From an uncultured delta proteobacterium (GTDB lineage: Bacteria > Desulfobacterota > Binatia > Binatales > Binataceae): 64,000 bases of DNA. The position numbers were made by a program, and so were the translations under genes. Location of the stretch: NCBI GenBank assembly GCA_963710425.1, contig CAVQAR010000020.1:105941-169940 (forward strand). The letters run 5' to 3'. This document shows, in pieces, positions 4,576 through 46,946 of this stretch (the first letter of the stretch is position 1; each line of letters opens with the position of its first letter). The notes beneath the pieces were generated by a model. The model was given only the letters and a program-made list of their open reading frames with translations. It made no database searches and was not told the DNA's origin.

Positions 4576-4746
4576 ATGGATCTGATCAGGAAAATGTATG
4601 TGAAGGCAGACGGGTTCGCGCGCGGACAAACGATGGCTGAGTATGCGCTGATTCTCGCAGCGGTCGCAGTCGTGGTTTTCGTCGGCTACCAGACCATGGG
4701 TACGACGATCACGACCTTGCTCGGCAGCGTGGACGGCAAGCTCTAA
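4576..4746 (+). CDS. Flp/Fap-family type IVb pilin (copy 1)
   Basis: Small protein with the GQTMAEYALILAAVAVVV hydrophobic core typical of Flp prepilins. The start could instead be 4540 or 4597. Confidence 0.65.
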   Translation: MDLIRKMYVKADGFARGQTMAEYALILAAVAVVVFVGYQTMGTTITTLLGSVDGKL

Positions 4747-4874
4747 TCGCGGACCGATTGCGGACGATTGAGTAAACCAGGCCGGCGGGGGCTATGCTCC
4801 CGCCGGTTAATCCAGGATCGGAACAAGATTGGCGAAAATCGGCAGTCGCTTAGCCGTACTGCCAAGAGGGGAAT

Positions 4875-5039
4875 ATGTTTACCAAGCTATACGTGAAAGC
4901 GAATGATTTTGCGCGCGGCCAGACGATGGCTGAGTATGCCCTGATTCTCGCGGCCGTGGCGGTCGTGGTTTATGTCGGCTACCAGACGATGGGGACGACG
5001 ATCACGACTCTGCTCGGCAGCGTTGACACCAGCCTCTAG
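4875..5039 (+). CDS. Flp/Fap-family type IVb pilin (copy 2, 54 aa; below the ORF-track size cutoff)
   Basis: Hand-translated: MFTKLYVKANDFARGQTMAEYALILAAVAVVVYVGYQTMGTTITTLLGSVDTSL, nearly identical to copy 1. An AGAGGGGA ribosome-binding site lies upstream. Confidence 0.65.
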   Translation: MFTKLYVKANDFARGQTMAEYALILAAVAVVVYVGYQTMGTTITTLLGSVDTSL

Positions 5040-5069
5040 TCGCGACGACCGACATATCTGAATATCCGG

Positions 5070-8363: not shown

Positions 8364-8371
8364 GGTGAGGG
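8335..8371. repeat. REP-like hairpin CCCTCGCCC-N7-GGGAGAGGG followed by TTAGGGTGAGGG
   Basis: Inverted repeat read directly. It belongs to the family listed in the findings. Confidence 0.6.
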
Positions 8372-8510
8372 ACATTTGTGCGGCGCGATTGCCTGTGGCG
8401 CCGTACATTCTGAATTCAGCAAATTTTGTCCCTCACGCGCCACGCGAGGACGCGCGGCGGCCTCTCTCCACGTGGGGCGAGGCAAAGAGGGCTCGCGATC
8501 ACAAAAATAT

Positions 8511-9956: not shown

Positions 9957-11774
9957 ATGAAGAATCCGTTTAGTGAACGATTGTGGATAAGCCGCGAGGT
10001 CCGGCTCGGGATTATTGTCGCGATTCTGTTTTCAATCGGCGCCGTGCTCTGCGCGGCCGGCGATCTGAAGGCCGGATTCGGCGTGATTGCCGTAGCGGTG
10101 GCGATGGTCGCGGCGTTTTATCTCGCCGTGGTCAGACCCGCGCAAATCCCGCGCGATGCCGTCCTGGTAATAAAGCTGGCGGGTCCGATCGAAGAGGACG
10201 TGACTGGCTCGCCACTCGATCAGATCATGCGTCGCGGCGCGATTAGCCTCGATCATCTTCGGTACGCGTTGGAATCGGCGGCGATCGACGACGACGTTCG
10301 CGCGATCGTGGTGGAGATAGCGAGCTTCGGCGCCGGCCTGGCGACCGCGCATGAGGTCCATCGCCTGATGCGCGCCGCTCAACTGGCTGGCAAGCGTGTG
10401 ATCGCCTTGCTGCGCGGCGATGACGCCGGCTTGCGCGAGTACCTGGTCGCGGCGGGCGCGGGTGAGATTGTCGCGAATCCCGACACGATGCTTACGATGC
10501 TCGGGGTCGCGACCGGCGGCGTCTTCCTGAAGAACGCGCTCGACAAGTTGAAAATCCAGGCGCAGACGCTGCAGTGGAAAGAGTACAAGGGCGCTGCCGA
10601 GACGCTCGGCCGCGATACGATGTCGCCGGCGCTGCGCGAGAGCATGGAGTGCATCGTCGCAGACTGGGAGAAAATCCTGGTTGAAACAATCGCGTCGGCT
10701 CGGAAACTCTCTCCTGAAAGAACGCGCGAGCTGATCGCGGCGGGATTCGTTAGCGCAAAGTTCGCAGTCGAGAATAAGCTGATCGATCGCGAGGGCTATA
10801 TCGAGGACCTCCGCGCTGAGTTCGATCCCGAGGCCAAGCGCAAGGTCTTCGTCAACATGGCGCGCTACCGGCGTCATGCAATCTTCACCCGCGAGCGGGG
10901 ACGCCGCGCGCGGATCGCGCTGGTGCACGCCAGCGGCCCGGTGGTTTCGGGCGAGGCGCCTGCGACCGGCGAACATATCAGCGGTGTCGCGACCGCCGCG
11001 CAACTCGATCGCGCTTCGCGCGACGAACGGGTCCGCGCAATCGTGTTCCGGGTGAACTCACCGGGCGGCTCCGCAGTCGGATCGGATTTGGTCTGGCGCG
11101 CAGTTCGCGAGGCGCAGGGTCGCGGCAAGCCGGTCGTGGTCTCGATGGGCGATGTCGCGGGCTCGGGCGGCTACTACGTCGCAGCCGGCGCCGACGCTAT
11201 CGTCGCCGAGCAGGCCACCATCACCGGTTCCATCGGCGTCGTGTACGCGAAATTCAATCTCGGGAGCATGCTCAATGAGCTTGGCGTCCATTTCGATTTC
11301 GTGAAAAGCGCGCCAATCAGCGACGCGATGTCGATGGCGCGCGCGATGACCGATGCCGAACTGGCGCAGCTCAACGAAACCGTGGGACACCTGTACGCGG
11401 CGTTCACCGCGAAGGTCTCCGAAGGCAGGCATCTCAGTGCCGAGCAGGCCGAGGCGGTAGCGAAGGGCCGCATCTGGAGCGGAATCGCAGCAAAGGAGCG
11501 CGGACTCGTCGACGAAGTTGGCGGCCTCTCGACCGCAGTGGCAATCGCGCGCGATCGCGCCCATATCGCTGTGGATAAACGTCATCAAATCGTGACCTAC
11601 CGCGCGGAGCGGCGATGGCTGGATTTTCGCGGCAGCAGTGCAGACCTCACGACCCCGTGGGTAATTCGCGCGGCCGCCAGCACGCTCGGGATTCCGACCC
11701 GTTGGGCGCCCTCGATGCTCGAATTGCTCTTCCGCGGCGGCGTGATGCTGCTGTGCCCGTTCATCGAGTTGTAA
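9957..11774 (+). CDS. sppA: signal peptide peptidase SppA (protease IV, 67K type, tandem S49 domains)
   Basis: N-terminal TM helix and two S49 peptidase domains, with GDVAGSGGYYVAAGADAIVAE...GSIGV. Confidence 0.85.
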   Translation: MKNPFSERLWISREVRLGIIVAILFSIGAVLCAAGDLKAGFGVIAVAVAMVAAFYLAVVRPAQIPRDAVLVIKLAGPIEEDVTGSPLDQIMRRGAISLDHLRYALESAAIDDDVRAIVVEIASFGAGLATAHEVHRLMRAAQLAGKRVIALLRGDDAGLREYLVAAGAGEIVANPDTMLTMLGVATGGVFLKNALDKLKIQAQTLQWKEYKGAAETLGRDTMSPALRESMECIVADWEKILVETIASARKLSPERTRELIAAGFVSAKFAVENKLIDREGYIEDLRAEFDPEAKRKVFVNMARYRRHAIFTRERGRRARIALVHASGPVVSGEAPATGEHISGVATAAQLDRASRDERVRAIVFRVNSPGGSAVGSDLVWRAVREAQGRGKPVVVSMGDVAGSGGYYVAAGADAIVAEQATITGSIGVVYAKFNLGSMLNELGVHFDFVKSAPISDAMSMARAMTDAELAQLNETVGHLYAAFTAKVSEGRHLSAEQAEAVAKGRIWSGIAAKERGLVDEVGGLSTAVAIARDRAHIAVDKRHQIVTYRAERRWLDFRGSSADLTTPWVIRAAASTLGIPTRWAPSMLELLFRGGVMLLCPFIEL

Positions 11775-11808
11775 TCCTCCGCCGCTCTAGCTCGCCAATA
11801 AAAGAAAC

Positions 11809-11837
11809 GGCCGCAGCCCATTGAAGGGACTGCGGCC
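11809..11837 (-). terminator. intrinsic terminator hairpin GGCCGCAGCCC-loop-GGGACTGCGGCC with a U-rich tail on the minus strand
   Basis: Stem-loop read directly. A T-run follows on the minus strand, downstream of OmpA-like copy 1. It may also serve sppA. Confidence 0.6.
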
Positions 11838-11866
11838 GGTAACAGACGTTTCAGTCTCAGCCAGAC

Positions 11867-12550
11867 TTAGTCGTTAGGCACCAGCTCGACGCGCCGGTTC
11901 TGAGCGCGACCCTCAGGCGTGTCATTGGTGGCGACGAAGTTGGTCTTGCCGTAGCCGTGCGGAATCAACTGACTCGACGGGATACCGGCTCTCGTCAGGT
12001 AATCCACGACCGCATCGGAGCGCCAATCTGACAGCTTGAGGTTGTACTCCTCGCCGCCAATCGCGTCGCAGTAGCCGTTGACGTTAATCGTCACGTTCGG
12101 ATTGGCCTTCAGTGTCGAAGCGGCTTCATCCAGAACGGCGGCATCTCCAGGCCGAATCTTCGACTTGTTGAAGTCGAAATGCACTCCGCGCAGCACCAGC
12201 TTCTGCCTAACCGGCGGAGGCGGCGGTGGCGGAGGAGGAGGCGGTGGAGGTGGCGGCGGCGGTGGCGGCGGGGGCGCTGCCTTCGGGGTCAGGTAATAGC
12301 CGAGCAGGCCACCGAGAATAGCGCCCGCGCCTACGCCGATCGGACATCCGATTGCGTACGACGTAGGATCGTCATAGTCAATCGAGGCCGCGATCCCACA
12401 TCCGATACCACCTCCGACGAACGCACCGGCAGCGGCTCCGAGTTCGGTGTTCTGCCTCTGCTCCGGCGTCCACGACGCGCATGACGAGACCGTCAGCAGT
12501 ACGACGGTTGCTCCCGCGCCAATCCAATTTTTCCAAGTACTCACTAGCAC
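11867..12550 (-). CDS. OmpA/Pal-family outer-membrane lipoprotein with glycine-zipper domain, 23-Pro linker and C-terminal OmpA peptidoglycan-binding domain (copy 1)
   Basis: Lipobox (LLTVSSCAS), glycine-zipper segment (GGGIGCGIAASIDYDD...GAGAILGG), P23, then NFDFNKS...NVNGYCD...RRVEL. GTG start with a GGAGGGG ribosome-binding site. Confidence 0.8.
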   Translation of the reverse strand: MLVSTWKNWIGAGATVVLLTVSSCASWTPEQRQNTELGAAAGAFVGGGIGCGIAASIDYDDPTSYAIGCPIGVGAGAILGGLLGYYLTPKAAPPPPPPPPPPPPPPPPPPPPPVRQKLVLRGVHFDFNKSKIRPGDAAVLDEAASTLKANPNVTINVNGYCDAIGGEEYNLKLSDWRSDAVVDYLTRAGIPSSQLIPHGYGKTNFVATNDTPEGRAQNRRVELVPND

Positions 12551-12696
12551 CCCTCCATCAAGTTAAGCGATTCCCGAATCAAGCGTTGAACGATTCTGCC
12601 CTTTTTTCGAAGCCCGGTCTATTAGGATCGATAAGTGTCTCAAACCTAAGCCGCCGTAATAGTGTCGCAACAAACGAAGTCCGAGACGAGAAAAAC

Positions 12697-12726
12697 GGCC
12701 GCAGCCCCATTGAAGGGACTGCGGCC
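12697..12726 (-). terminator. second copy of the same terminator hairpin, downstream of OmpA-like copy 2
   Basis: Identical stem sequence to 11809-11837. Confidence 0.6.
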
Positions 12727-12755
12727 GGTAACAGACGTTTCAGTCTCAGCCAGAC

Positions 12756-13435
12756 TTAGTCGTTAGGCACCAGCTCGACGCGCCGGTTCTGCGCGCGACC
12801 CTCTGCAGTGTCGTTGGTGGCGACGAAGTTGGTCTTGCCGTAGCCGTGCGGAATCAGCTGACTCGACGGGATACCGGCTCTCGTCAGGTAATCCACGACC
12901 GCGTCCGAGCGCCGATCTGACAGCTTGAGGTTGTACTCCTCGCCGCCAATCGCATCGCAGTAGCCGTTGACGTTGACCGTCACGTTCGGGTTGGCCTTCA
13001 GAGTCGAAGCGGCTTCATCCAGAACGGCGGCATCTCCAGGCCGAATCTTCGACTTGTTGAAGTCGAAATGCACTCCGCGCAGCACCAGCTTCTGCCTGAC
13101 CGGCGGAGGCGGCGGTGGCGGAGGAGGCGGTGGAGGCGGCGGCGGTGGTGGAGGCGGCGGAGGCGCTGCCTTCGGAGCGTAGTAATATCCGAGGATGCCA
13201 CCCAGCAGAGCACCCACACCTACTCCGATAGGACATCCGATTGCGTAGGACGTCGGATCGTCATAGTCGATTCCTGCCGCGATACCACAACCGATCGCGC
13301 CACCGACTAGCGCACCGCCGACTGCTCCGCCGGTGACGTACGCGTTTTGCTCTTGCGTCCACGACGCGCATGACGAGACCGTAAACAGGACAATGACGGC
13401 CAGCGCGCTAACCCAATTTTTCCACTTATGCACAG
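12756..13435 (-). CDS. OmpA/Pal-family lipoprotein with poly-Pro linker (copy 2, over 90% identical to copy 1). The listed ORF extends to 13574, but the likely start is the GTG at 13433 with a GGGAGGGG ribosome-binding site.
   Basis: Near-identical protein with P23 and OmpA C-terminal domain. The start context matches copy 1. Confidence 0.8.
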
Positions 13436-13724
13436 GTACCCCTCCCTGGGACTCATACAGTTGCAGATTTGAAACCCCACGAATTGTGCCATTTCTACCG
13501 CGCGAGGTCCATTCGGCCAGCGAAGGCGTCGTATAGGCCGAAATTCGTAATGGCTCGTTCGCAGTGTTCGGCAATCGCGAATTAGGCTAGCGACGATTTG
13601 CCTCTTGCGCTTTATTTTGCTTAACTGCGCGCAACCGAGCACGGTTTGATTGATTTCGGGGGTTGATTGCTTGGTCGCTAATCGGGTTTGACCAAAAAGT
13701 TCTTGATCGCGAGGGGAGGATTCC

Positions 13725-16984: not shown

Positions 16985-18256
16985 TCAGAAAATACTTAAT
17001 AAACGTTTAGTTAACGACGTTGTCTTCGAGACATCGGAGGGCGCGAGCAGCGCGATCGTCGTGACTGGCTTGCCGCCCTCGGTCACGTTCGCGGTTCCGA
17101 TTTGCTGGCCCGCTTTCAGTGGTGCTGCGATCGATGCTGGCAAATTGTAATCGACTTTGATCGCGTTGTGCGCGTTGTCACGCTTTATGAAAACTCCTGC
17201 GTCATCGCCCCAAACCGGCTTGATACTGTTGATGTCGGCGTCGGTTACGGCGACGGATTGCGCGATTGGCGCGCCTTTCTTCGCGACCGGATGCATCTCG
17301 TAGTTCAGAAATCCTTGCGACAGCATCTCGGACGCTTCCTTGAAATTCGTCAGCTTGTGCTGAGTGCCCAGCACCACCGCGATCAGCCGCAGGCCGTTGC
17401 GTTTTGCAGTGGCGACCACGCAGAACCCGGCCTTGTCATAGAATCCCGTCTTGAGCCCGTCGCATCCGGGATACGTCCGCACCATGTGATTGGTGTTGCG
17501 CAGGATGAACGTTCCGCCGCGAAACGGCGCTGTGTCGATCGATGACCATCGAATCACGTCGGGATACTTCAGCAGCTCGCGCGCCAGAATCGCCTGGTCA
17601 TACGCGCTCGCAACGTCGGCCGACTCGCCCTTCGATGGCGGCAGGCCGTTAACCGAGTAGTAGTGCGAGTCCTTCATCCCGAGCGCGGCCGCCTTCTGGT
17701 TCATCATCACGACAAACGATTCAGTAGAACCCGCGATATATTCCGCGACCGCGACCGACGCGTCGTTGGCCGAATGTACGACCACCGCCTTCATCATGTC
17801 GTCGAGCGTGAACGTCTCATTTTCTTTCAGATAGACCTGCGAACCGCCCATCTCAGCTGCCTTGGCCGAGGTAGTTACGTTGTCGGTCAGCTTCAGCGAG
17901 CCGTCGTGAAGTTTCTCAGCGACGATCAGCATCAGCATCATCTTGGCGAGCGATGCGGTCGGCCACGGCGCATGATCGTTGGACTCGAAGATGACGGTGC
18001 CGGTGACGGGCTCCATCACGCACGCCTCGGAATACGCGCCCAGCGCGCTGCTCGACGCATTAGCGTTGCTCTCCTCATCAGGAGCCTCGGCCTTCGCAGC
18101 AGCATGATGCCGTCGCGCCGCAATTGCAGAGTAGGGCGATATGATCGCAGCGATCGCAACGATCAAAGCAACAAATCCAAATTTTCGACCAGTGACAGCA
18201 GTGGCGCGGACCGCCGTGCCCGCGGCCGATTCGCCAGATGACGAGAGAACCTTCAT
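16985..18256 (-). CDS. D-alanyl-D-alanine carboxypeptidase (peptidase S11, PBP5/DacC-like)
   Basis: SxxK (ASLAKM), SxN (SANDA) and KTG motifs, with a signal peptide. The start was chosen at MKVL; the ORF track extends to 18292. Confidence 0.85.
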   Translation of the reverse strand: MKVLSSSGESAAGTAVRATAVTGRKFGFVALIVAIAAIISPYSAIAARRHHAAAKAEAPDEESNANASSSALGAYSEACVMEPVTGTVIFESNDHAPWPTASLAKMMLMLIVAEKLHDGSLKLTDNVTTSAKAAEMGGSQVYLKENETFTLDDMMKAVVVHSANDASVAVAEYIAGSTESFVVMMNQKAAALGMKDSHYYSVNGLPPSKGESADVASAYDQAILARELLKYPDVIRWSSIDTAPFRGGTFILRNTNHMVRTYPGCDGLKTGFYDKAGFCVVATAKRNGLRLIAVVLGTQHKLTNFKEASEMLSQGFLNYEMHPVAKKGAPIAQSVAVTDADINSIKPVWGDDAGVFIKRDNAHNAIKVDYNLPASIAAPLKAGQQIGTANVTEGGKPVTTIALLAPSDVSKTTSLTKRLLSIF

Positions 18257-18339
18257 AGCGTACCACCTCCGCAACACATCGACCGAGCGCACGAATATTA
18301 GCCAACAACGTGCTTCGCGGCGAGTGTCGATGCGCGAAA

Positions 18340-18436
18340 CCCTTCTTTTTGGTTCCGCCTCGCGCTACGGGAAGGGGTTACTCCCAATAATCTGGTTCCC
18401 CTTCCCGCTCGGGAAGGGGTTAGGGGTTAGGTTCCT
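18340..18436. repeat. composite REP-like element: two CCCCTTCCC/GGGAAGGGG-type hairpins ending in TTAGGGGTTAGG; about 70 nt near-identical to 34368-34433
   Basis: Read directly and compared by eye with the 34.3-kb copy. Confidence 0.65.
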
Positions 18437-18451
18437 GACTCGGGAAATTCT

Positions 18452-19517
18452 CTAAAAACGGTCGGCGGTCCAGAACACTGATCGCGAATCTGCGAAAATC
18501 TCAAACGCGCGCGCCGAAGCCGCTTCAGGAGCCATCGCGAACCGGCGCGCGAGCTTCTCAGGCGCGAGCATTCGCCACATGTAATTGTTGTCCACGTGAT
18601 GCGCGACGGGACATCCCGCGTCGCCCAGCGCCTTTTCGAGTCGCGGATCGTGCGCGGTATGCGTGACCAGCACTGAAGGCTCGGCAGGCTTCGACGCGCT
18701 GTGCAGCAGACTCGCACGCCGATGATCCCCGACCGTCCGCACCGTGACCGGCACGCCGGACGCCGACTGGCCCAGGTACTTGAACGTGGCGAGCATCGCG
18801 TCAACGCCGTCGGGCAGGTAGCCGTACTCCATCACCATCGAGACGCCGTGAAAGCGCGTGACTCGCGCATACGCCGCGATTCGCGCATCGTCGCGACACA
18901 CGACGAAATAGTCCTCGGAGCCTTCGCCGGGATGGAGCGGCTGATTGCCGGCAAAGTTCAGATTCGCGCGCCAGGCCGAGTCGTCGCGCACTGCGGTTAC
19001 ATTGAAACGTCCACTGTAATTACGATGAATCGCGGCAATCTCGGCGAGGTCGCGCTCAGTTTCGAAACTGTCGATAACGAAACGATCAGCAACGTCGAGC
19101 GTCGCCGCCGCCGCGAGGATGCTGAATTTGCGCTCGACTTCGCGCCATCCGAACATGTTGTAGAACGTAAGCCGTTCCGCGAACAGCAACGATACTTCGA
19201 AGCCCTCGCGCACCATCGTATCGACCGCGAGCCGCATCAGCGCCGACGCAACCCCCTTGTGCCGATACGTCTTCGAGCGTGAAGACCGATCCGATGCCGC
19301 CCATCGGCACCGCCTGCCCGTCGAGATTGATCGCGCGATCGAAAATCTGAACCGTCGAGACAAGTTGCCCACCATCGCGCGCAACCAGGCACAACTCATC
19401 TCGAAACCGCGGATCGAGCCGATTGTACCGCTCGAAAAACGCGCGGTCCCCATACCACCGCGCGAGCAAGTCGAGTACCTCGTCCCGCTCATTATTGTGC
19501 GCAGCCCGAACTTCCAT
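18452..19517 (-). CDS. GNAT-family N-acetyltransferase with a C-terminal domain (Eis-like architecture); frameshift at about 19270-19300
   Basis: ORF 19086..19517 gives the GNAT N-terminal region up to GIGSVFT. ORF 18452..19492 continues with HKGVASALMRLAVDTMVREGFEVSLL, the acetyl-CoA-binding motif. Confidence 0.55.
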
Positions 19518-22580: not shown

Positions 22581-22665
22581 TTCCCTCTCCCAGAATGGGA
22601 GAGGATCGAAGGTGAGGGTCCTTGTATAGCGCGCTTCTTTTGCGCGCGACTTAAGATTCTGCTCC
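22581..22665. repeat. REP-like element CCCTCTCCCAGAATGGGAGAGGATCGAAGGTGAGGGTCC plus a conserved AGCGCGC...GCGCGCG...AAGATTCTG tail; second copy at 30776-30842
   Basis: The two copies were compared directly; the one at 30.8 kb lacks its left arm. Confidence 0.6.
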
Positions 22666-22811: not shown

Positions 22812-24113
22812 ATGGAAGTTGAAGATCTCTCAGCGCGCGACGAAACCGCGAGCGTCCTCGAACCGCCTCGCATCGACACTCCGGCGATGCGTTGGGAGGT
22901 CATGTTCTACTTCGCGATTCTCAACATCGTGATGGGACTTGGCTCGCCGCTCGGCATCGCCGCGATTCCGATTACCTACTTCCTGAAAGACACCCTTCAT
23001 ATGTCGCCGGTGCGCCTCGCGATCTTCCTCGCGCTCGTCTCGATACCGGTATGCGCCGGATTCCTGTTCGGCTTCATCCGCGATCGATGGCGCAGCGCGC
23101 AATGGGGCGATCGCCAATACTTGTTCGTATGCGCATTAGTCGCCGCCGCCGGGTATTTCTGGTTAGCCACTTCCACAATTGACTATTATAAGTTGCTTTC
23201 GATCGTCCTCATCATCGTCGCCGTGTACGTGATGATTTACACGTCGGCACAAGCTCTGATGGCCGGCGTGGCGCGCGCGTACGGGATGACCGGGCGCCTG
23301 AGCGTCGCATTCAGCTTCGGCTACTTCGTTCCCTTGGTGATTTCAGCGCTGGCCGGCGGATGGCTGGTAGCGCATGTGTCGGTGCGCGGCACCTTCCTGA
23401 TCGCGGCCGGCGTGACGATTGTGATCGCGATGCAGTCCTTTTGGCGACTCGACGCCGCAACCGAATTCGAAAGCTCGCTCGTGTTCGCTGAAAAAGGCTT
23501 CGCCGCGATACTCCGGCTCATCCGCCATCGGCCATTGTGGCCCGCCGCCGCGATTTCCTTCCTGTGGAACTTCAGCCCGGGATGGGGCACGCCGATGTTC
23601 TATCACCTGACAGAGCACGTGCGGATTTCGAGCGAACTGTTCGGCACCTTCACCGCGCTGCAGTCGCTATTCTTCCTGCCGACGACTTTGCTCTATGGCT
23701 ACCTGTGCACCCGCGCGCCGCTTTCGCGGCTGCTGTGGTGGGGAACGATAGTCGCGATCCTTCAAGGCCCGATCATGTTCCTGGCGCTGGGACCGGTGAG
23801 CACAATCGTAGTCGCAATCCTCTACGGCCTGTTCGGCGGCTTCGCCACCGCGGCGTATTTCGATCTGATAATGCGCTCATGCCCAAAAGGCCTCGAAGGC
23901 ACCGCGATGATGCTCGCCAACACCTCGATGTTCTCAATCGCCGGCAACAGCGGCAACTTGCTGGGCAGCTGGATCTATTCCACCGGCGGCTTCGCCTCAG
24001 CCGTGATCATCACAACTCTCGCAACCGCGCTAATAGTCCCAGTCCTGCGCGCAGTCCCCCCCGACCTAATCGCCACCCGCGACGGCGAACGCATAGACCC
24101 AAGCGCCGCGTAA
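22812..24113 (+). CDS. major facilitator superfamily transporter (BT1/folate-biopterin-transporter-like)
   Basis: About 12 predicted TM helices. N-terminal PITYFLKDTLHMSP motif resembles the BT1 family. Confidence 0.5.
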   Translation: MEVEDLSARDETASVLEPPRIDTPAMRWEVMFYFAILNIVMGLGSPLGIAAIPITYFLKDTLHMSPVRLAIFLALVSIPVCAGFLFGFIRDRWRSAQWGDRQYLFVCALVAAAGYFWLATSTIDYYKLLSIVLIIVAVYVMIYTSAQALMAGVARAYGMTGRLSVAFSFGYFVPLVISALAGGWLVAHVSVRGTFLIAAGVTIVIAMQSFWRLDAATEFESSLVFAEKGFAAILRLIRHRPLWPAAAISFLWNFSPGWGTPMFYHLTEHVRISSELFGTFTALQSLFFLPTTLLYGYLCTRAPLSRLLWWGTIVAILQGPIMFLALGPVSTIVVAILYGLFGGFATAAYFDLIMRSCPKGLEGTAMMLANTSMFSIAGNSGNLLGSWIYSTGGFASAVIITTLATALIVPVLRAVPPDLIATRDGERIDPSAA

Positions 24114-24131
24114 GAGCTTTTCTTTTCTGTT

Positions 24132-24164
24132 CCCCTTCCCACGATGGGAAGGGGTTAGGGTTAG
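24132..24164. repeat. REP-like hairpin CCCCTTCCC-acgat-GGGAAGGGG followed by TTAGGGTTAG
   Basis: Read directly. Confidence 0.6.
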
Positions 24165-24174
24165 ATGAGTGCCT

Positions 24175-24651
24175 GTAATGCGCGAGCCGAAGCGGTGGAA
24201 GCGGCCGAGTCTTGGTGTCGAGATGGAGCAGGTCACTAGGCGCGGCGTACTCGTAGCGAACGATGGGCGGCAGCTAATCCAACGCGCTCAGCCGGGACAA
24301 TCCGGCCCGCTTGAGCAGGCGGCTTACGGTGGCGAGGCTGAGCTAGAGTTGTGCGGCGATATGCTTCATCAGGAGGCGCTGGCGGCGCAGCGCGATCGCC
24401 TGCTCGACCAATGCTGGCGCCGTAGGGCGACGCAGCCGGTGAGGACGCGAGCTGCCGTAGGCCAGTCCGGCCGGACCTTCGCCGGCAAAACGCCTAGCTC
24501 ACTTGCGCACGGTCTTGTCACTCACACCCACGCTCGCTGCGACGGTCTTCGGCAATTCTCCACCATTCACCCGCATGACGAGTGCGGCTCGACTAAGCGG
24601 TGTGGTACGCGCATTCTGATGAATGTCCATCAGGGAGTAACATCCTGAGTC
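24175..24651 (-). pseudogene. degraded IS481-family transposase N-terminal fragment (HTH region), with internal stops and frameshifts and no catalytic domain
   Basis: Hand-translated minus strand: MDIHQNARTTPLSRAALVMRVNGGELPKTVAASVGVSDKTVRK*, then in other frames ...SSRPHRLRRPTAPALVEQAIALRRQRLLMKHIAAQL*LSLATVSRLLKRAGLSRL...YEYAAPSDLLHLDTK. These match IS481-type OrfAB N-termini. Confidence 0.6.
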
Positions 24652-24769: not shown

Positions 24770-24830
24770 TTGTACCAAAGTACAATATCCGCCCCTCTCA
24801 AGATCAACGAACCTGTAGCGACTCACTGAA
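24770..24830 (+). promoter_or_regulatory. conserved leader element with perfect palindrome TTGTAC-caaa-GTACAA (copy A), immediately upstream of the secreted-protein gene at 24830
   Basis: About 60 nt shared with 26998-27060 (TTGTACCAAAGTACARTAYCC...CTCA.GATCAACGA.C...ACTCA..GAA). Confidence 0.45.
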
Positions 24831-26997: not shown

Positions 26998-27060
26998 TTG
27001 TACCAAAGTACAGTACCCATCCTCCTCACGATCAACGATCATGCACCCAACTCATCGAAC
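26998..27060 (+). promoter_or_regulatory. conserved leader element, copy B (TTGTAC-caaa-GTACAG), upstream of the DUF1254/DUF1214 gene
   Basis: Aligned by eye with copy A. Confidence 0.45.
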
Positions 27061-29528: not shown

Positions 29529-29579
29529 ACAATCCGTCACCAGCCGCACCCGTGCCTTTCTTCCCCTCTCTCTATCAGG

Positions 29580-30774
29580 AGAGCTTTGCGAAACTGGTGT
29601 CCGTATGGGCGCAGCTAGAGCGGATAGACGACTTGGCTGAGGTTCGTGGTTGGGGCTGTGGATTTGGGGTCGGTCGAGCAGCTGTGGGATGCGAGCCTTG
29701 AAGGTTAGGTGAAGTTTAATCATGGATTCAGGCCGTGCTCAGGACCAGCGCCCGTTGAGGTTGATCGCGATGCACATGGTGAGCAGTTGGACCCGATTGC
29801 GCAGCAGCCCGCGATAGCGCACTCGCCGGTAACCATAATGCAGCTTCATTACCGCAAAGGTGCGTTCCACCTGAAAGCGGATCCGGGCCAGCGTCCGATT
29901 GCGCGCGGTCAATTGCGGATCCGGATTGCGCGCAGTGCCCCACCAGGCCCGGCGCATGATGCCATCGGCGATCGCCAACCGCCGCAACAGTTCACGCCGC
30001 CGGCCGCTGTCGTAAGCCTTGTCGGCAAACACTGCACTCTCGTCCCCGCAGATCAGCTGATCGGCCGGCTCACTGTCGTTGGTTTTGGCCCCGGTCAACA
30101 ACACCTTGCGGATGAGGCCGCTGCCGAGGTCCACCGCCACGTGTGCCTTGTAACCAAAGTGCGAGGGTTGGCCCTTGCGCCGGGTCCATTGCGCGTCAGG
30201 ATCCAGCCGCGAGCCTTGGCCCAGATTCTCTCCGCGCTCGCCGGTGCTCGGTTCCTTGACTGCCGCGCGCACCAACGAAGCATCGATCAAGGTGCCGCGC
30301 TTGATCACCAACTGCTGACGCTCGAGTTGGGCGCTGACTTCGCTGAACAGCGCCTCATCCAAACCTCGCGCGGCCAACTGCGCGCGAAAACGGCTGATCG
30401 TGGAATGGTCGGGTACCTGCTGATTGAGCGCCAGCCCCGCGAACTGGCGAAAACTAATTCGATCCTCCAGCGCCGCTTCCAGCTCCGGGTCCGACAGCCG
30501 ATGCCACTGCTGCAACAGCAGCGCGCGTAACATCACGATCGGTGGATACGACGGTCGTCCTTCGCGCGCTGCGTACAACTGCGCCATGCGCTCCGCCAGC
30601 CGCTCCCAATCCACCAGTTCATACACCGCCTCCAGCCAATGCTTGGCCTTGCGCCGCGCGATTATGCTCTCCGCCAAACTCAACTGCCCCATCATCCGAT
30701 GACTCATCGCCCGCTCCTCCTCCGCATCCCTTGCATCAATTTGATCAAAGACACACGAGTTATGCAAAGGTTTC
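29580..30774 (-). mobile_element. IS5-family insertion sequence (1195 bp) with imperfect terminal inverted repeats and a flanking 3-bp direct repeat CAG; inserted into a REP-like hairpin
   Basis: IRs GAGAGCTTTGCGAAACTGGTGT (29580-) and the reverse complement of 30774 (GAAACCTTTGCATAACTCGTGT), 17/22 identical. CAG lies at 29577-29579 and 30775-30777. Confidence 0.65.
29739..30707 (-). CDS. IS5-family DDE transposase (InsH-like N-terminal domain plus DDE domain)
   Basis: WLEAVYELVDWERL...GRPSYPPIVMLRALLLQQWHRLSD (InsH N-terminal domain) and a DDE catalytic region. Start chosen at MSHRMMGQ, inside the IS. Confidence 0.85.
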   Translation of the reverse strand: MSHRMMGQLSLAESIIARRKAKHWLEAVYELVDWERLAERMAQLYAAREGRPSYPPIVMLRALLLQQWHRLSDPELEAALEDRISFRQFAGLALNQQVPDHSTISRFRAQLAARGLDEALFSEVSAQLERQQLVIKRGTLIDASLVRAAVKEPSTGERGENLGQGSRLDPDAQWTRRKGQPSHFGYKAHVAVDLGSGLIRKVLLTGAKTNDSEPADQLICGDESAVFADKAYDSGRRRELLRRLAIADGIMRRAWWGTARNPDPQLTARNRTLARIRFQVERTFAVMKLHYGYRRVRYRGLLRNRVQLLTMCIAINLNGRWS

Positions 30775-30775
30775 C

Positions 30776-30842
30776 AGAATGGGAGAGGATCGAAGGTGAG
30801 GGTCCTTTTCAGCGCGCTCTCCGCGCGCGCTTCAAGATTCTG
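30776..30842. repeat. right half of the REP-like element split by the IS (AGAATGGGAGAGGATCGAAGGTGAGGGTCC plus tail)
   Basis: Matches 22594-22665. Its left arm (CCCCTCTCTC) lies at 29563-29576, on the other side of the IS. Confidence 0.55.
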
Positions 30843-30948: not shown

Positions 30949-31518
30949 ATGCCACCTGTGAAAGTAATGAGACTTCATCACCTGACGGCGCTGTCATTGC
31001 TCGGCTGGTGCTTGGTATTACCGGCGCCAACTAACGCGAATGCCGAGCCTCAGGTTTTGGCGCAAATCCGTATCGAAGGTAACCAGCGCATCGAAAAAGA
31101 CCCAATACTCATTCACATCCATCAGCAGGCGGGCCAGCCGCTCGATAAAAGCGTGGAAAGTTGGGATCTTCGGTCCATTTACGAAATGGGGTTTTTCAGT
31201 TCTGTCAATGCACATATCGTGTACATCAAGGGTCAACCAGTTCTGGTGTACACAGTCAGTGAACGACCCCAACTCATCGACGTGCGCGTCGAAGGTATGA
31301 AAGCGCTCTCACCCACGGATCCGCGAGTAGTCCAAGCGATCAAGATTCACGACGGATATATTCTCGACCCTATAGCCGTCCGCGAAACAATTGAGAATTT
31401 GAAAACCCTTTACAGGGACGAGGGGTATATCAATGCTCAGGTCACATTCGTTCCAGTCCCACGACCCAACAACACTGCGAACGCCATACTTAAAGTGACC
31501 GAAACACCGCAGCAGTAG
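30949..31518 (+). pseudogene. truncated BamA-like gene: POTRA1-POTRA2 only (189 aa), with no beta-barrel
   Basis: Signal peptide, then IRIEGNQRIEKDPILIHIHQQAGQPLD...LRSIYEMGFFSSV...YTVSERP, which is the BamA POTRA signature. The ORF stops after about 2 POTRA domains. Confidence 0.55.
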
Positions 31519-31555: not shown

Positions 31556-31595
31556 TTCCCCCTCTCCAGAAGGGAGAGGGGTTAGGGGAGAGGTT
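31556..31595. repeat. REP-like hairpin CCCCCTCTCC-agaa-GGGAGAGGGG followed by TTAGGGGAGAGG
   Basis: Read directly. It forms a direct pair with 31787-31825, flanking a 190-bp non-coding segment. Confidence 0.6.
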
Positions 31596-31786: not shown

Positions 31787-31825
31787 TTCCCCTCTCCTGA
31801 AGGGAGAGGGGTTAGGGGAGAGGTT
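31787..31825. repeat. REP-like hairpin CCCCTCTCC-tgaa-GGGAGAGGGG followed by TTAGGGGAGAGG
   Basis: Near-identical to 31556-31595. Confidence 0.6.
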
Positions 31826-33495: not shown

Positions 33496-34134
33496 ATGCC
33501 TGAAAACGGAAAACCCTATGTCACCGCGCTCTACCCCGAGCAGCACGATCAGGCCGCCGACTCGCTCGGCCGCGCCTTCATCAACGACCCGACCTTCAAG
33601 GCGATAATTCCGGATATCACCGACCCGGTCGAGCGCGCGACGCATCTCGCGGACCTGTTCCGCGGGATGCTCGCGATCGAGCGCCGCGGTGGACAGCCAG
33701 TGTTCGGGATCATCGACGATAATGGACGCGTCGTCGCCGCCGCGTTGACGGAGGGCGTCGCGCATGCGGGCGCGCTCGGCATGATCACCACCGGACTCGG
33801 CCAGATGCCGCGGATGGTCCGCGCGATCGGAATGGGCGGGCTCTGGCGCGGGCTGAACCTGGTCAGCGTCCTCTCGGACAACCATCCCAAGGAGCCGCAT
33901 ATCTATCTGCAGGTGCTCGGCTGCGACCCGCCATTCCAGGGCAAAGGTTACGGCAAGGCACTGGTCGATCGGCTCGCGCTCGAAGCAAAGGCGCGTCCGG
34001 AAATAGCAGGCGTGTACCTCGAGACCATGACCGAAGCCAACGTCGCGTTCTACAGCTCCAGAGGCTACGAAATTCTAGGCGAGCTGTATCCGCTAGGCGT
34101 CAAAACCTGGCGAATGTATCAGCGCAAGCGGTAG
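33496..34134 (+). CDS. GNAT-family N-acetyltransferase
   Basis: Acetyl-CoA-binding motif QGKGYGKALV and GNAT topology. Confidence 0.55.
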   Translation: MPENGKPYVTALYPEQHDQAADSLGRAFINDPTFKAIIPDITDPVERATHLADLFRGMLAIERRGGQPVFGIIDDNGRVVAAALTEGVAHAGALGMITTGLGQMPRMVRAIGMGGLWRGLNLVSVLSDNHPKEPHIYLQVLGCDPPFQGKGYGKALVDRLALEAKARPEIAGVYLETMTEANVAFYSSRGYEILGELYPLGVKTWRMYQRKR

Positions 34135-34288
34135 GGAGAGATGGGAACGGTTGAATGTGAAACCCCCGGTGGGTTTCACACTTCCTTCGGCGGGGTGACC
34201 CCTGCACCCAGTGATAATCGCAAAATGGCGAGGACGCCATTTCGCTCTCAGGTTCTAGGGAGAGAGCGCTACTCCCTCTGCTTCTGTT

Positions 34289-34433
34289 CCCCCTTTCCGC
34301 GTCGGAAAGGGGGTGAGGGGGATAGGACGATGCGATTCCGACGAAACCTCCTGTTCCCGTGCTGTTGGGAAGGGGTTGCTCCCAATAATCCGGTTCCCCT
34401 TCCCGCGCGGGAAGGGGTTAGGGGTTAGGTTCT
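34289..34433. repeat. composite REP-like element (CCCCCTTTCC...GGAAAGGGGG hairpin plus the 70-nt unit shared with 18368-18436); probable bidirectional terminator between convergent genes
   Basis: Read directly. It lies between the GNAT gene's stop codon and the convergent minus-strand gene. Confidence 0.6.
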
Positions 34434-34434
34434 T

Positions 34435-34716
34435 CTACGCAGCAGTGCGTGGATGAATAGTAGTTACCCGCAATCCTTTGGAGGTCCACCCAACATCAAA
34501 CCCAACAATGTCGCCTTCGCGAATCAAATCGATTCCCGGCATCGTGCCGCCGATGCGCGCGCCCGCGACCGCCACGAACGGAAACTCAAACGGGATCTCT
34601 TTGCCGCTATGCGATCGCACTACGCCGCGGCCGCGCGCGCGGTCGAGCTTGAGAATCATCCCCTGGTAGAAATTTCCCGGAAAGCGCTCGCTGTCGAAAT
34701 CGTTTTCGTCCGCCAC
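34435..34716 (-). CDS. small cold-shock-domain-like (OB-fold) protein, hypothetical
   Basis: Its pattern GRGVVRSHSGKEIPFEFPFV...REGDIVGFDV...KGLRVTTI parallels CspA's GFGFI...VFVH...G..V.F....KG..A..V. Confidence 0.35.
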   Translation of the reverse strand: MADENDFDSERFPGNFYQGMILKLDRARGRGVVRSHSGKEIPFEFPFVAVAGARIGGTMPGIDLIREGDIVGFDVGWTSKGLRVTTIHPRTAA

Positions 34717-37548: not shown

Positions 37549-37582
37549 CCTGACCCCTAACCCCTTCCCTCGAGGGAAGGGG
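37549..37582. repeat. REP-like hairpin in reverse orientation (CCTAACCCCTAA-CCCCTTCCC-tcga-GGGAAGGGG)
   Basis: Reverse complement of the CCCCTTCCC...GGGAAGGGGTTAGGGGTTAGG family. Confidence 0.6.
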
Positions 37583-44230: not shown

Positions 44231-44620
44231 TCACTCTCGCATCGCCGAGCGCCCCTGCATCATCAGTCCGCCAACCATCGCGACGCCATTCGCGATCAGC
44301 GCCTGGATTTCGGGTGATTTCGAAAGCATCTGCCACGCGTCCATCAAAGGCCGATTGCCCGAGAAACTCATTATCGTCTCGGCCAGGTGTCCGTTGCCCG
44401 ACAGCATGCTGCCGAGCGTCTCGGCCACCGACAGCTTCCCTTCCTCGAAGGTGCTCTGGAAGATCGAGGTTCCGGTCGCGAGCATCCCCTTGAATTCTTC
44501 GGAGTTGACGATCGTCTCCCACGCCTTGCGCAGCTCGTCGAAACGCTCAGGACCCTCTTTCGCCCCCAGCACGTAACCGAGCATGAAACCCAAAAGCGCA
44601 CCCATTGAACTAGTCCTCCC
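44231..44620 (-). CDS. small hypothetical protein (about 125 aa) read in-frame as a C-terminal extension of the HypF ORF
   Basis: HypF homology ends near ...GQVAIAASE. The ORF then continues into MGALLGFMLGYVLGAKEGPERFDELRKAWE..., unrelated to HypF. Confidence 0.3.
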   Translation of the reverse strand, partial: GRTSSMGALLGFMLGYVLGAKEGPERFDELRKAWETIVNSEEFKGMLATGTSIFQSTFEEGKLSVAETLGSMLSGNGHLAETIMSFSGNRPLMDAWQMLSKSPEIQALIANGVAMVGGLMMQGRSAMRE

Positions 44621-46875
44621 TCGCGAGCGCCGAGTCTCAGACGCGGCTATCGCAACTTGTCCAAAACTGATTCCCGCGTCATTGGTCGGGACCTGCCGAT
44701 GCGTCAGCACGTTGAATCCCACGTCCTCCAGCAATCCAACCGTCCGTCGTAGCAATAACTGGTTTTGAAATACGCCGCCGCTGAGCGCGACCAGCGCCAA
44801 TCGGCGCGCGCGCCCGATCGCGATGCATGCGTTGAGGATCATCTGCGCTATCGAATTGTGAAAACGAGCGGCAACGACTGCAATAGAAGCGCCGGCCTGC
44901 AGATCGTTCACCACTGCGCGCACCAGGTCCTTGCCGCGAATTTCAAACGGCATCGCCGATGAAACCGGGACTTCGTAAGCGCCGTCTTCCTCGAGCGACG
45001 CCCGTTGCTCAAGTTCTATCGCCGCCTGCCCTTCATAGTTGATCGTGTCGCGCACCGAAAGGATCGCCGCGACCGCATCGAACAGCCGGCCCGCGCTGGA
45101 AGTGCGCGGCGAGTTCGTATTGCTCCGCATGAGCGCGGAAATCTGCCGCCATTGATCCGCATGCCGCGCGACAACTTCCAGCTGCTCCGGAATAGTTTCA
45201 CCGTAGGCGTGATGCAGGTACGACGCCGCCATTCGCCACGGCTGTTTGATAGCCGCAGTCCCGCCCGGCATCGCGACGGATTCAAGATGGCCAACGCGCT
45301 CAAACTTCGCCAGGTCCGCGATCAGAAATTCGCCGCCCCAGATTGTGTTGTCGAGCCCGAACCCAAGCCCATCGAATGCAACTCCAATAGACGGCCCGTG
45401 CACGCCATTGTCGGCGAGGCATGCGGCAATGTGCGCGTGATGATGCTGCACGGCGACCAACTCGACGCCCTTCAACTCGAGCGCATATTTCGTGGACAGG
45501 TACTCCGGATGCAGGTCATAAGCGACTACCTGGGGATCGATATCGAACAGCCGTCGAAAATGATCGATACCCTCGCGGAACGATCGCAGGGTTTCGAAAT
45601 TTTCCAGGTCGCCGATGTGATGTGATACGAAAGCATGCTGCCGTTTCGCGACGCAAAACGTGTTCTTGAGCTCGGCGCCACAAGCCAGGATCGGCCGCCG
45701 CAGTTTGAACGGAAGCTCAATAGGCTGCGGTGCGTACCCCCGCGAACGGCGCACCGGAACTTCCCGCCCTCGCGAAACCCGCACGACGCTATCGTCAGTG
45801 CGAATATGAATCTGCCGATCGTGAATCAGGAAATAATCTGCGATGGGCGAAAGCCGCTTCGCCGCTTCATCGTCCGTGTACGCAATCGGTTCGTCAGAAA
45901 CGTTGCCGCTGGTGAACACGATCGGCGCGTTGACCGATTCGCATAAGAGATGATGCAGCGGCGTGTACGGCAACATCACACCGATGAATCGATTCGACGG
46001 CGCCACCGAATGCGCCAGATTGGCGTCGAATTTGCGCTCGAGCAGGACAACGGGACGGCGCGGACTAGTCAGCGCACGCTCTTCCACCTCATCAATCGCC
46101 GCCAGTTCGCGTGCCGCCGTCAGATTCGGCGCCATCACGGCAAACGGCTTGTCCTCACGATGCTTGCGCGATCGCAGCACTTCACCGCATCCTCATCCGA
46201 CGCGAGCGCCGCAAGATGATAGCCGCCGAGGCCTTTCACCGCGAGAATTTTTCCAGCTCTCAACAGCTCGGCAGCTTTGCGAATCGGATCGCCAGCCTGT
46301 GCGATTCCATTTCGATCGATCAAACGCACAGCAGGGCCGCATGCCGGGCAGCAAACCGGCTCCGCGTGGAATCGCCGATCGGACGGATCGTGATATTCGC
46401 GCGCGCAGTCTGCGCACATCGGAAACTCGGCCATCGTCGTCAGCCCGCGGTCGTATGGCACGCCGCGAACGACCGTGAATCGCGGACCGCAATTGGTGCA
46501 ATTGGTGAACGGGTAGCGATAGCGCCGATCAAGCGGATCGAAAATCTCGCGGATGCAGTCGTCGCAAGTCGCGATGTCGGGAGAAATCAAAACCTGCCGC
46601 TCGCCATCGACCTGGCTCGCCAGTATCGCAAATTCCGATCGTTTCGCGACCGGAATCAGCTCGGCCGTCACATTCAGTATCGATGCAAGTGGCGGCGCAT
46701 CGGTCACCAGCCGCGAGCGGAACTCCGCGACGTTCGCGACGCTTCCCTCGACCTCGATCGCGACGCCGTGCAAGTCGTTGACGATCGAACCGCCGAGCCC
46801 CAACTTTTGCGCGAGGCCGAAAACGAACGGCCGAAACCCTACCCCCTGCACGATTCCATCAATCCTGATACGCAT
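44600..46875 (-). CDS. hypF: carbamoyltransferase HypF; frameshift in the 46135-46180 overlap
   Basis: ORF 46135..46938 has the acylphosphatase domain, two Zn-finger CxxC pairs and the start of the YrdC domain. ORF 44231..46180 carries YrdC and the Kae1-like domain. Confidence 0.85.
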
Positions 46876-46946
46876 CGCCACGCGATTCCGAGGTTCGTGA
46901 GGTAACGATTGGGAGACAGTGTGTTCAGCCGGTCGCATTCCCGTCT

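Follow-up and report, generated by a model that had tools for sequence, protein, structure and literature searches.

Closest described systems and the repeats of the window

BoxC repeats are said to have been described by Bachellier in the 1990s, and the PIT elements by Hoyne and Maher in 2000. According to Holder et al. (2015; PMC4666352), both are the same element as TMECO, which is present in 23 copies in Escherichia coli K-12 and in 3610 copies in 262 proteobacterial genomes. The isolated E. coli strand forms a stable triplex, as judged by circular dichroism (CD) and nuclear magnetic resonance, and blocks polymerase in vitro, and in 56 E. coli strains the loci that carry the motif show more rearrangement (PMC4666352). 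The present analysis concerns a 64,000-nt stretch, here called the window (assembly GCA_963710425.1, contig CAVQAR010000020.1, positions 105,941 to 169,940), from an uncultured bacterium of a Binatus-like lineage, in which a family of short GC-rich hairpin repeats is dispersed between genes. These repeats probably belong to the BoxC/PIT/TMECO class of G/C-rich class II intrastrand triplex motifs, and as such would be structure-prone, high-turnover elements of 35-40 nt that are noncoding, nonautonomous, and intergenic. The class itself has already been published; what is new are the stem variants of the window, all except that of the copy at position 8335, from a poorly studied Binatus-like bacterium.

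The identity of the family was revealed by a full-text search with the tail of the copy at 8335, which led to Holder et al. (2015; PMC4666352), in whose Table 1 this tail occurs 13 times, and to Kaplan et al. (2016; PMC5100583). The copy itself (CCCTCGCCC..GGGAGAGGGTTAGGGTGAGGG) is almost the same as 'type A mm' of PMC4666352, down to the same G.A mismatch in the stem. When its exact 43 nt are used as the query, 5409 of 5426 complete E. coli genomes contain matches (91-93% identity over 41-43 nt), with 16 such places in the median genome. A copy of the type B variant gave no match in E. coli, and the local variant sequences were found in none of the searchable papers. The strict published pattern, CCCTCNCCC-N3-6-GGGNGAGGG-N3-GGGNGAGGG, has no match on either strand of the window; when the first loop is allowed 7 nt, positions 8335-8371 become its one match, and this loop length is the only feature that keeps the copy outside the strict pattern. 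The first-pass annotation, made from the sequence alone, had recognized no catalogued family and had held that a match to one would count against its proposal. Such a match now exists, because the architecture and one copy are those of BoxC/PIT/TMECO. The comparison with Rfam that it had also suggested returned no family at gathering thresholds over the whole window and, at 34050-34480, only sub-threshold noise (Chlorobi-1 at 19.7 bits with a cutoff of 50, sbcD at 20 with a cutoff of 40).

Units of the window share with BoxC/PIT/TMECO the order of the segments, which is a C-rich stem, a loop, a G-rich stem, a 3-nt TTA linker, and a mirror G-rich stem. In both settings the copies are numerous and strictly intergenic, and their loci vary between related genomes. 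The differences concern the stems CCCCTTCCC, CCCCTCTCC, CCCCCTTTCC, and CCCTCTCC and the linkers TGA and ATCGAA, none of which are those of E. coli; the host, which is not a proteobacterium; and the packaging of the window cores within long units of 80-120 nt and a 42-nt tandem form. The window also lacks the inverted pairs of type A and type B copies, a published example of which is present in the hrpB-mrcB spacer of K-12. A further comparison can be made with the homopurine-homopyrimidine mirror repeats that form H-DNA, since the G-rich arm, linker, and third segment of a window unit make up a purine mirror repeat with the same G.G:C, A.A:T, and T.A:T triads. The window units differ from these in having an additional 5' pyrimidine arm, such that one strand supplies all three segments and a supercoiled duplex is not needed, and in their stems of 8-11 nt.

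Five observations made here underlie the assignment to the class: the architecture, the covariation of third strand and stem, a location between genes, occurrence in many phyla, and copies gained and lost between related genomes. Triplex formation in vitro, the polymerase block in vitro, and the instability of loci come from the literature on the E. coli motif, and by analogy the local variants would probably behave in the same manner. When the G-rich strand becomes single-stranded, be it during replication or repair or when displaced in transcription, its first two arms would form a hairpin of 8-11 bp, and the third segment would fold back on the purine arm through reverse-Hoogsteen G.G:C, A.A:T, and T.A:T triads. 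The resulting three-strand structure could stall polymerases, and stalling at the fold would lead to local deletion, duplication, and rearrangement and to the turnover that is observed. Copies would persist mostly in 3' intergenic spacers, where they are presumably least harmful. We infer that selection or propagation acts on the fold itself.

Questions about the function and spread of BoxC, PIT, and triplex-motif repeats go back to the 1990s, and E. coli has been the subject of nearly all studies. The window reveals the class to be abundant in a lineage at the level of a candidate phylum. Its natural stem variants, all with a mirror third strand, provide a covariation series for triplex, G-quadruplex, and hairpin-only models, and its mosaics, 42-nt tandem form, and filled and empty orthologous sites can be used to work out how copies originate.

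The third segment and its mirror rule

Each unit begins with a C-rich arm, followed by a loop of 3-7 nt, the complementary G-rich arm, a linker of 1-6 nt, and a third segment that mirrors the G-rich arm. In this third segment G remains G, and A either stays A or becomes T. The linker is TTA in most copies and TGA or ATCGAA in others. Thus, arm, linker, and third segment read GGGAGAGGG-TTA-GGGTGAGGG at 8335, GGAGAGGGG-TTA-GGGGAGAGG at 31559 and 31789, GGAAAGGGGG-TGA-GGGGGATAGG at 34289, and GGGAGAGG-ATCGAA-GGTGAGGG at 22583 and 30781, whereas GGGAAGGGG-TTA-GGGGTTAGG, found at 18398, 34396, and 37549, has one imperfect position. The units, together with two features that adjoin them, are as follows.

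8335-8371, plus strand: type A core, CCCTCGCCC / loop GTTCGTC / GGGAGAGGG / TTA / GGGTGAGGG; differs little from the 'type A mm' form of TMECO in E. coli, whose G.A stem mismatch it shares (Table 1, PMC4666352)
8378-8436, plus strand: lineage-specific long-unit extension of type A, from alignment; second GC hairpin 8378-8406, ATTCTG 8407-8412, GTCCCTCAC 8428-8436
18352-18392, plus strand: degenerate first unit of a composite, with decayed C-arm, GGGAAGGGG, TTA, and spacer CTCCCAATAATC; corresponds to the 42-nt block missing in the ortholog, L023
18398-18431, plus strand: type B core, CCCCTTCCC / GCTC / GGGAAGGGG / TTA / GGGGTTAGG
22583-22661, plus strand: type E long unit; core CCCTCTCC / CAGAAT / GGGAGAGG / ATCGAA / GGTGAGGG 22583-22618, GC hairpin 22628-22648, AAGATTCTG 22653-22661; L023 has no unit at the orthologous site
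24132-24166, plus strand: type B hairpin with degenerate third strand GGGTTAGAT, adjoining an IS481-like fragment
29563-29570, plus strand: left (C-arm) piece of a type E copy split by an insertion sequence
about 29579-30774 (ends approximate), minus strand: IS5-like insertion sequence inside the loop of that type E copy, not a family member; DUF772 plus DDE_Tnp_1 transposase 29739-30767, imperfect terminal inverted repeats
30775-30842, plus strand: right portion of the split type E long unit, with the rest of the loop, GGGAGAGG, ATCGAA, GGTGAGGG, the GC hairpin, and AAGATTCTG
31559-31593, plus strand: type C core, CCCCTCTCC / AGAAG / GGAGAGGGG / TTA / GGGGAGAGG
31789-31823, plus strand: type C core, 97% identical to 31559-31595
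34151-34216, plus strand: separate multicopy element of two hairpins, associated with the triplex core
34289-34326, plus strand: type D core, CCCCCTTTCC / GCGTC / GGAAAGGGGG / TGA / GGGGGATAGG; a perfect 10-triad mirror design
34353-34390, plus strand: degenerate first unit of the second composite
34396-34429, plus strand: type B core, CCCCTTCCC / GCGC / GGGAAGGGG / TTA / GGGGTTAGG
37549-37582, minus strand: type B core whose third strand, GGGGTCAGG, gives two imperfect triads

There are 10-13 units in 8 intergenic regions between 8.3 and 37.6 kb, or about one unit per 5-6 kb over 8-38 kb, and none in shuffled sequence (shuffles of the window preserved dinucleotides). The hairpin CCCTTCCC-N3-8-GGGAAGGG has four matches in the window and CCTCTCC-N3-8-GGAGAGG has three, both with none in 100 shuffles, and TTAGGGGTTAGG with up to two mismatches has 15 matches compared to a shuffle mean of 0.86. 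Folding of the hairpins as single-stranded DNA with ViennaRNA, which models the hairpin only, yields -9.4 to -13.3 kcal/mol, with z-scores of -2.0 to -4.2.

A unit is present at every position named in the first-pass annotation, 34289-34433 included, and the proposal of a dispersed repeat family stands. Its 'at least 10 intergenic loci' reduce to 8 intergenic regions, one spacer holding the copies at both 31559 and 31789 and another those at 34289, 34353, and 34396. Both orientations do occur, but the minus strand contributes a single unit (37549-37582) and the plus strand 11-12. Similarly, the tail types were correctly recognized but are more diverse than was stated (TTA-GGGTGAGGG, TGA-GGGGGATAGG, ATCGAA-GGTGAGGG, and a degenerate GGGTTAGAT at 24158). 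The duplicated composite is real, with 95% identity over 66 nt between 18369-18434 and 34367-34432, and the C-arms have decayed in the first unit of each composite (18352-18392, 34353-34390). The insertion of an IS5-like element into the loop of a type E copy is likewise evident; 34 nt of this split copy are 100% identical to 22590-22623. The IS481 remnant beside the copy at 24132 was also found, as an N-terminal fragment at 24499-24630 on the minus strand, which we take to be IS481-like from reading the peptide rather than from a profile match. As a separate observation on strands, cumulative GC skew over 1-64000 climbs until about 14 kb and then drops, and the G-rich strand is the plus strand in 11 of 12 repeat units. 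The turn in skew and the strand bias could reflect a replication-related strand switch, as seen in one window.

Mirror symmetry was evaluated with a scanner for class II purine-motif intrastrand triplexes, in the style of ITxF, that accepts the triads C:G*G, T:A*A, and T:A*T. Set to stems of 9-11 nt and no more than one imperfect triad, it reports seven motifs, all on the plus strand, and none in 60 shuffles; when two imperfect triads are allowed, there are 10 motifs compared to a shuffle mean of 0.3. Six of the seven strict copies lie within all ITxF limits (stem 6-15 nt, at most one mismatch, loops 1-6 nt), and the remaining one, at 8335, has a first loop of 7 nt. A larger sample came from 1.6 Mb of fetched loci, which yielded about 389 perfect 9-bp pyrimidine/purine hairpins, a count that is approximate because each reads alike on both strands. 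In approximately 90% of these hairpins, one side is flanked by a third segment in which 8 or more of 9 mirror triads are correct. Among asymmetric stems, the mirror rule is satisfied 221 times, compared to 80 for a direct-repeat control rule. At least 10 independent stem designs were encountered, each with its own matching third strand (e.g., GGAGAAGGG with GGGATGAGG, GAAAGGGGG with GGGGGATAG, and GGAGGAGGG with GGGTGGAGG), and a stem scores 8.68 of 9 triads with its own third strand versus 7.0-8.0 with a swapped one.

These data also bear on the proposal made for the E. coli motif that the G-rich arm and tail fold into a G-quadruplex (G4) that competes with hairpin and duplex and thereby regulates transcription. 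The HPG1/HPG2 motif of E. coli is the same E. coli sequence (GGGAGAGGGTTAGGGTGAGGG plus a 5' C-rich arm), is intergenic and near 3' ends, and favors convergent over divergent spacers, and its ion-dependent switching has been followed by CD (PMC5100583). The copy at 8335 has four G3 tracts with 3-nt loops, and 59 of 61 foreign copies of the GGGGAGGGG type are canonical G4 motifs, defined as four G3+ tracts with loops of 1-7 nt. The four G3 tracts that HPG1/HPG2 requires are nevertheless present in only one of 10 window copies, and the canonical rule holds for 2 of 20 foreign copies of the GGGAAGGGG type and 15 of 45 of the GGAGAGGGG type (76 of 127 foreign copies overall, with a strong dependence on stem type). 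All of these copies follow the mirror rule, and a G4 needs no mirroring of A and T between tail and arm, yet such mirroring is seen in at least 10 designs. A G4 switch is a very improbable explanation. Because the mirror rule extends across designs and G4 potential is rare in the window and in foreign type B copies, the common constraint is mirror symmetry of the triplex type, and neither G4 potential nor an alternative hairpin.

Three other candidates were considered and set aside. An attenuator-like alternative hairpin, in which the tail pairs with the C-arm, is ruled out by a tail that mirrors the G-arm rather than copying it directly. A telomere-like (TTAGGGG)n array is ruled out with just two repeats, in type B only. 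Integron attC sites came to mind from the GTT flank and from same-strand arrays such as that of the IMG/VR contig L171, but GTTCCCC does not fit the GTTRRRY core and L171 carries a plain 336-nt tandem repeat.

Several points weigh against the triplex motif as a full account of the family. Type B (GGGAAGGGG / GGGGTTAGG), the dominant local variant, has one imperfect triad that recurs in 18 of its 20 foreign copies and for which the triplex rule offers no explanation. Both the G.A stem mismatch, which E. coli has as well, and the conservation of the 5' TT hint at a constraint beyond the triplex, such as recognition by a protein, or at common descent, and the TTA linker is a fourth conserved feature outside the rule. 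Covariation among stem types could in part derive from a few successful master copies rather than from selection on each copy. For the E. coli motif, dimethyl sulfate footprinting detected no triplex in vivo, and the duplex prevails when the complementary strand is present (PMC4666352). The link between motif and instability is correlative.

The same conserved features invite the proposal that the units are sites for a conserved DNA- or RNA-binding protein, with the three-segment symmetry being the recognition rule of the protein and not a nucleic-acid triplex. Four features that are conserved across phyla lie outside the triplex rule and fit such a role: the 5' TT (1.5 and 0.9 bits), the linker TTA, the imperfect triad fixed in type B, and the G.A mismatch that also occurs in E. 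coli. With no candidate protein, no consistent placement relative to promoters, and at least 10 stem sequences that would demand either many proteins or recognition of shape, we regard this as very unlikely.

Genomic context, distribution, and turnover

Genes mapped by GC content at third codon positions (GC3) and by Pfam identify the window as ordinary chromosome, with aroA, hisD/B/A, peptidases, OmpA-family genes, and a [NiFe]-hydrogenase/hyp cluster. All copies in the window are intergenic, and their reported preference for the space after stop codons or between convergent genes is confirmed: at six of nine loci a stop codon is no more than about 45 nt away, and four loci are between convergent genes. 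One locus (22583) lies between divergent genes, in a promoter region. Within the lineage of the window there are 41 strict motifs, none in genes, with 12 sense versus 11 antisense and 12 convergent versus 6 divergent spacers, in an analysis that overlooked some small genes and so assigned a few spacers of the window wrongly. An approximate analysis over all phyla gives 15 sense versus 26 antisense and 18 convergent versus 8 divergent; its crude caller of open reading frames (ORFs) placed 35 of 127 copies 'inside' ORFs, and less weight is given to it than to the lineage-restricted one. For the E. coli motif, the corresponding ratio is 6 convergent versus 1 divergent (Kaplan et al.; PMC5100583).

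This location could be expected of a REP-like (repetitive extragenic palindromic) RNA element, in which a transcribed GC hairpin of 9-11 bp at mRNA 3' ends serves as a barrier to exonucleases or as a terminator independent of a U-tract, possibly acting in both directions between convergent genes. Proximity to stop codons and the excess of convergent spacers, in the lineage, over all phyla, and in E. coli, agree with such a role, as does a hairpin that is identical in either orientation. Moreover, sites resembling intrinsic terminators are rarer than in shuffled sequence between 18100 and 38000 (8 versus 18.3 +/- 4.7), as are sigma-70-like promoters (2 versus 6.8), so the organism probably uses other terminator and promoter signals. 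However, sense and antisense copies are about equally frequent in the lineage, some copies lie in divergent promoter regions (22583), and a role for the hairpin only would leave the conserved and covarying third segment unexplained. Purine-motif triplexes do not form in RNA, and earlier work found neither promoter nor terminator activity for the E. coli PIT elements (PMC4666352). An RNA element of this kind is thus possible but rather unlikely. Its specific form as a conventional terminator, which the first-pass annotation had considered, finds no support: no copy is followed by a T-run, orientation is balanced, the E. coli elements lack terminator activity, and a terminator scan of 18.1-38.0 kb placed no repeat copy among the eight terminator-like sites, the tails being G-rich.

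Care must also be taken when annotating genes near these repeats. Mechanically called ORFs at 8100-8363, 18141-18455, and 23537-24178 (plus strand) enter a repeat and stop at the TAG in the TTAGGG of the linker, and the repeats can therefore create or lengthen spurious ORF calls. ORFs that end in the linker TTAG are unreliable, and the repeats should not be called REPs or terminators.

The family extends well beyond the window. A scan of species-representative genomes with CCCCTYYCC-N3-8-GGRRAGGGGTTAGGGG, for which roughly 0.1 matches are expected at uniform base composition, finds the core in at least 118 genome stretches. Among the matches listed are Cyanobacteria (including Nostoc linckia NIES-25 and Calothrix), Alphaproteobacteria (Mesorhizobium, Hyphomicrobium, Devosia, Sphingomonas), metagenome-assembled genomes (MAGs) of 'delta proteobacterium', Candidatus Binatus, Myxococcaceae, Bacteroidota, Chlorobi/Ignavibacteria, Chloroflexota, Planctomycetota, Acidobacteriota, lineages of the candidate phyla radiation, and Clostridia. 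The motif is also present on 80 IMG/VR contigs. Across phyla, conservation falls to background within 2-3 nt of the core, with a 5' (G)TT whose two T positions hold 1.5 and 0.9 bits. In metagenomes, the exact composite has no match, and a looser 19-mer has 18, one of them real (on contig L215) and the other 17 unrelated and due to chance. A plasmid search with type B returned weak partial matches only, none of them on mobilizable plasmids.

Gain and loss can be followed in the nearest relative found, the MAG MFD05377.bin.2.158 from Microflora Danica (L023, 'uncultured delta proteobacterium'), which is syntenic with 15.8-22.6 kb of the window, with 81-83% of nucleotides identical over about 6 kb. 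Where the window has the composite at 18.35 kb, L023 has one unit only, so the window holds an extra block of 42 nt. The unit of about 120 nt at 22.57 kb is missing from L023, which has a different unit elsewhere in the same spacer. In the core at 18.4 kb, a single case, every position of stem, linker, and third strand is identical in the L023 ortholog, and the flanking genes are about 82% identical. Comparison of filled and empty sites reveals a weak ATCCGC direct repeat at 22.57 kb and tggtt at 18.35 kb, in spacers too diverged to define the ends of the element. The suggestion that these repeats may mark recombination hot spots agrees with such gain and loss and with published instability data.

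In the Binatus-like lineage, the cores are modules of longer mosaic units and of the 42-nt tandem form. The variants and longer units of the window are shared with L023, sister MAGs, and Candidatus Binatus (phylum Binatota), which suggests that the window belongs to this lineage. Types A and E occur in long units of 80-120 nt common to Binatus-like MAGs, made up of the core, a second GC hairpin, and ATTCTG; the 3' extension aligns at 8378-8436, 22628-22661, and 30811-30842 of the window and in L023, L055, L066, L076, L098, and L109. In type A, the downstream GTCCCTCAC (8428-8436) is complementary to the third strand and its flank (GTGAGGGAC), which gives this third strand an alternative Watson-Crick partner. 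On L215, the composite is an intact tandem array with a period of 42 nt and the third strand at its end. Another lineage-specific packaging of the same core is found on L171 (43% GC), where a 336-nt tandem repeat at 10245-11986 (5.2 copies, 90% identity) holds in each unit a CCCCTCTCC-type core with its own conserved flank (gagtaagccgg..tgagtt), with relatives on L119, L129, L155, and L176. Finally, L121, L125, L134, L137, L141, L153, L163, and L197 are syntenic IMG/VR contigs, 68-90% identical, with a conserved gene cluster classed as viral, in which the same spacers are empty in some members and carry one or two motifs in others. Pairs among them often consist of inverted TTA-linker and TCG-linker copies and resemble the E. 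coli pairs of type A and type B. This cluster is possibly a prophage or a region of Alphaproteobacteria similar to a gene transfer agent, which is a guess.

Such turnover raises the question of a mobilizing enzyme. One proposal is a REP/REPIN family moved in trans by a REP-associated tyrosine transposase (RAYT), a Y1 HUH enzyme encoded elsewhere in the genome. Like the REP/BIME and REPIN-RAYT systems of Enterobacteria and Pseudomonas, the window units are short GC-rich extragenic palindromes that lie mostly after stop codons, form mosaics, and are occasional targets of insertion sequences. They are present in many copies with presence/absence polymorphism, and inverted pairs of two linker types exist in other lineages and in E. 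coli. HUH enzymes, among them the TnpA of IS200/IS605 and the RAYTs, recognize folded single-stranded DNA, which also speaks for this proposal. Nevertheless, the third mirror segment is lacking in REPs, and no GTAG or similar conserved tetranucleotide stands at the foot of the hairpin, where the 5' flanks read ..GGTT, ..TGTT, ..TTTT, and ..TCTT. No spacer of the window contains an inverted doublet, 11-12 units being on one strand, and a profile search found no Y1_Tnp among the roughly 50 ORFs that cover the window. REP families are specific to their RAYT lineage, whereas this core is common to many phyla. On these grounds, mobilization by a RAYT, which the first-pass annotation had raised, is most improbable. 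The repeats also resemble MITE-like (miniature inverted-repeat transposable element) families such as ERIC, Correia, RUP, and Nezha in being nonautonomous, multicopy, intergenic, and polymorphic for presence or absence between relatives. They differ in a far shorter core; in the diverged spacers compared, neither terminal inverted repeats nor a clear target-site duplication could be made out. We know of no cognate transposase for triplex-motif repeats.

A broader proposal gives the triplex core the role of functional module in a mechanism not yet discovered, which would operate across phyla. This might be a system for mobilizing or copying single-stranded DNA that reads the fold and moves between phyla, or a universal machine, such as the replisome, RNA polymerase, or a repair factor, that reads the core as a signal. 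The proposal arises because E. coli and a Binatus-like MAG share a noncoding repeat of 43 nt, at 91-93% identity and with the G.A mismatch in common. It draws as well on the conserved 5' TT and TTA linker, the fixed imperfect triad of type B, the presence of the motif on contigs classed as viral, and the longer units that each lineage builds around the same core. At present, such a mechanism seems distinctly unlikely.

Neighboring features of the window

The two-hairpin element at 34151-34216 (plus strand) is about 60 nt long (AATGTGAAACCCnCGGTGGGTTTCACgCTTCCTTCGGCAGGGGTGACCCCTGCACCCAGTG), with hairpins of 10 and 7 bp, and is known from 8 copies, the others being in five related loci (L076 2564-2622 and 4447-4508; L086 975-1053; L101 727-791; L109 665-727; L150 4030-4093 and 5760-5818). 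Three pairs carry compensatory changes, and pairing fails in one cell only, owing to a 1-nt gap of the window copy. In the window, L086, L101, and L076, the element immediately precedes a triplex core; it has no match in Rfam. This element may be a lineage-specific small RNA or a further module of the mosaic repeats.

Another repeat, of 46 nt and 80% identity, occurs at 24770-24815 and 26998-27043 (plus strand) and contains the palindrome TTGTACCAAAGTACA. It is located just upstream of the ORF start at 24830 and of a probable internal start at about 27041 in a DUF1254/DUF1214 gene, and may be a shared operator or leader. Two small tandem ORFs at 4577-4747 and 4876-5040 (plus strand), in an unusually AT-rich stretch (4.1-4.6 kb), encode 56 and 54 aa with the motif ..GQTMAEYALILAAVAVV.. 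and are 80% identical in DNA; we take them to resemble pilins of the Flp/Tad type. The tandem OmpA-family genes at 11867-12550 and 12756-13574 (within 11817-13574, minus strand) include a duplication spaced by 889 nt (95% identity over 300 nt), and their glycine-rich linkers are encoded by long GGC/GGT repeat tracts.

An ORF of 189 aa at 30949-31518 (plus strand), next to the IS5-like element, contains POTRA repeats only and is possibly a truncated gene of the BamA/TpsB type. In the hyp/[NiFe]-hydrogenase cluster at 40-57 kb, which is intact apart from hypF, this gene is apparently in two overlapping ORFs (44231-46938, minus strand), with an N-terminal portion of acylphosphatase and zf-HYPF domains at 46135-46938 and a C-terminal portion of Sua5 and Kae1-like domains at 44231-46180. 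The split could be due to a frameshift, a sequencing error, or a programmed feature.

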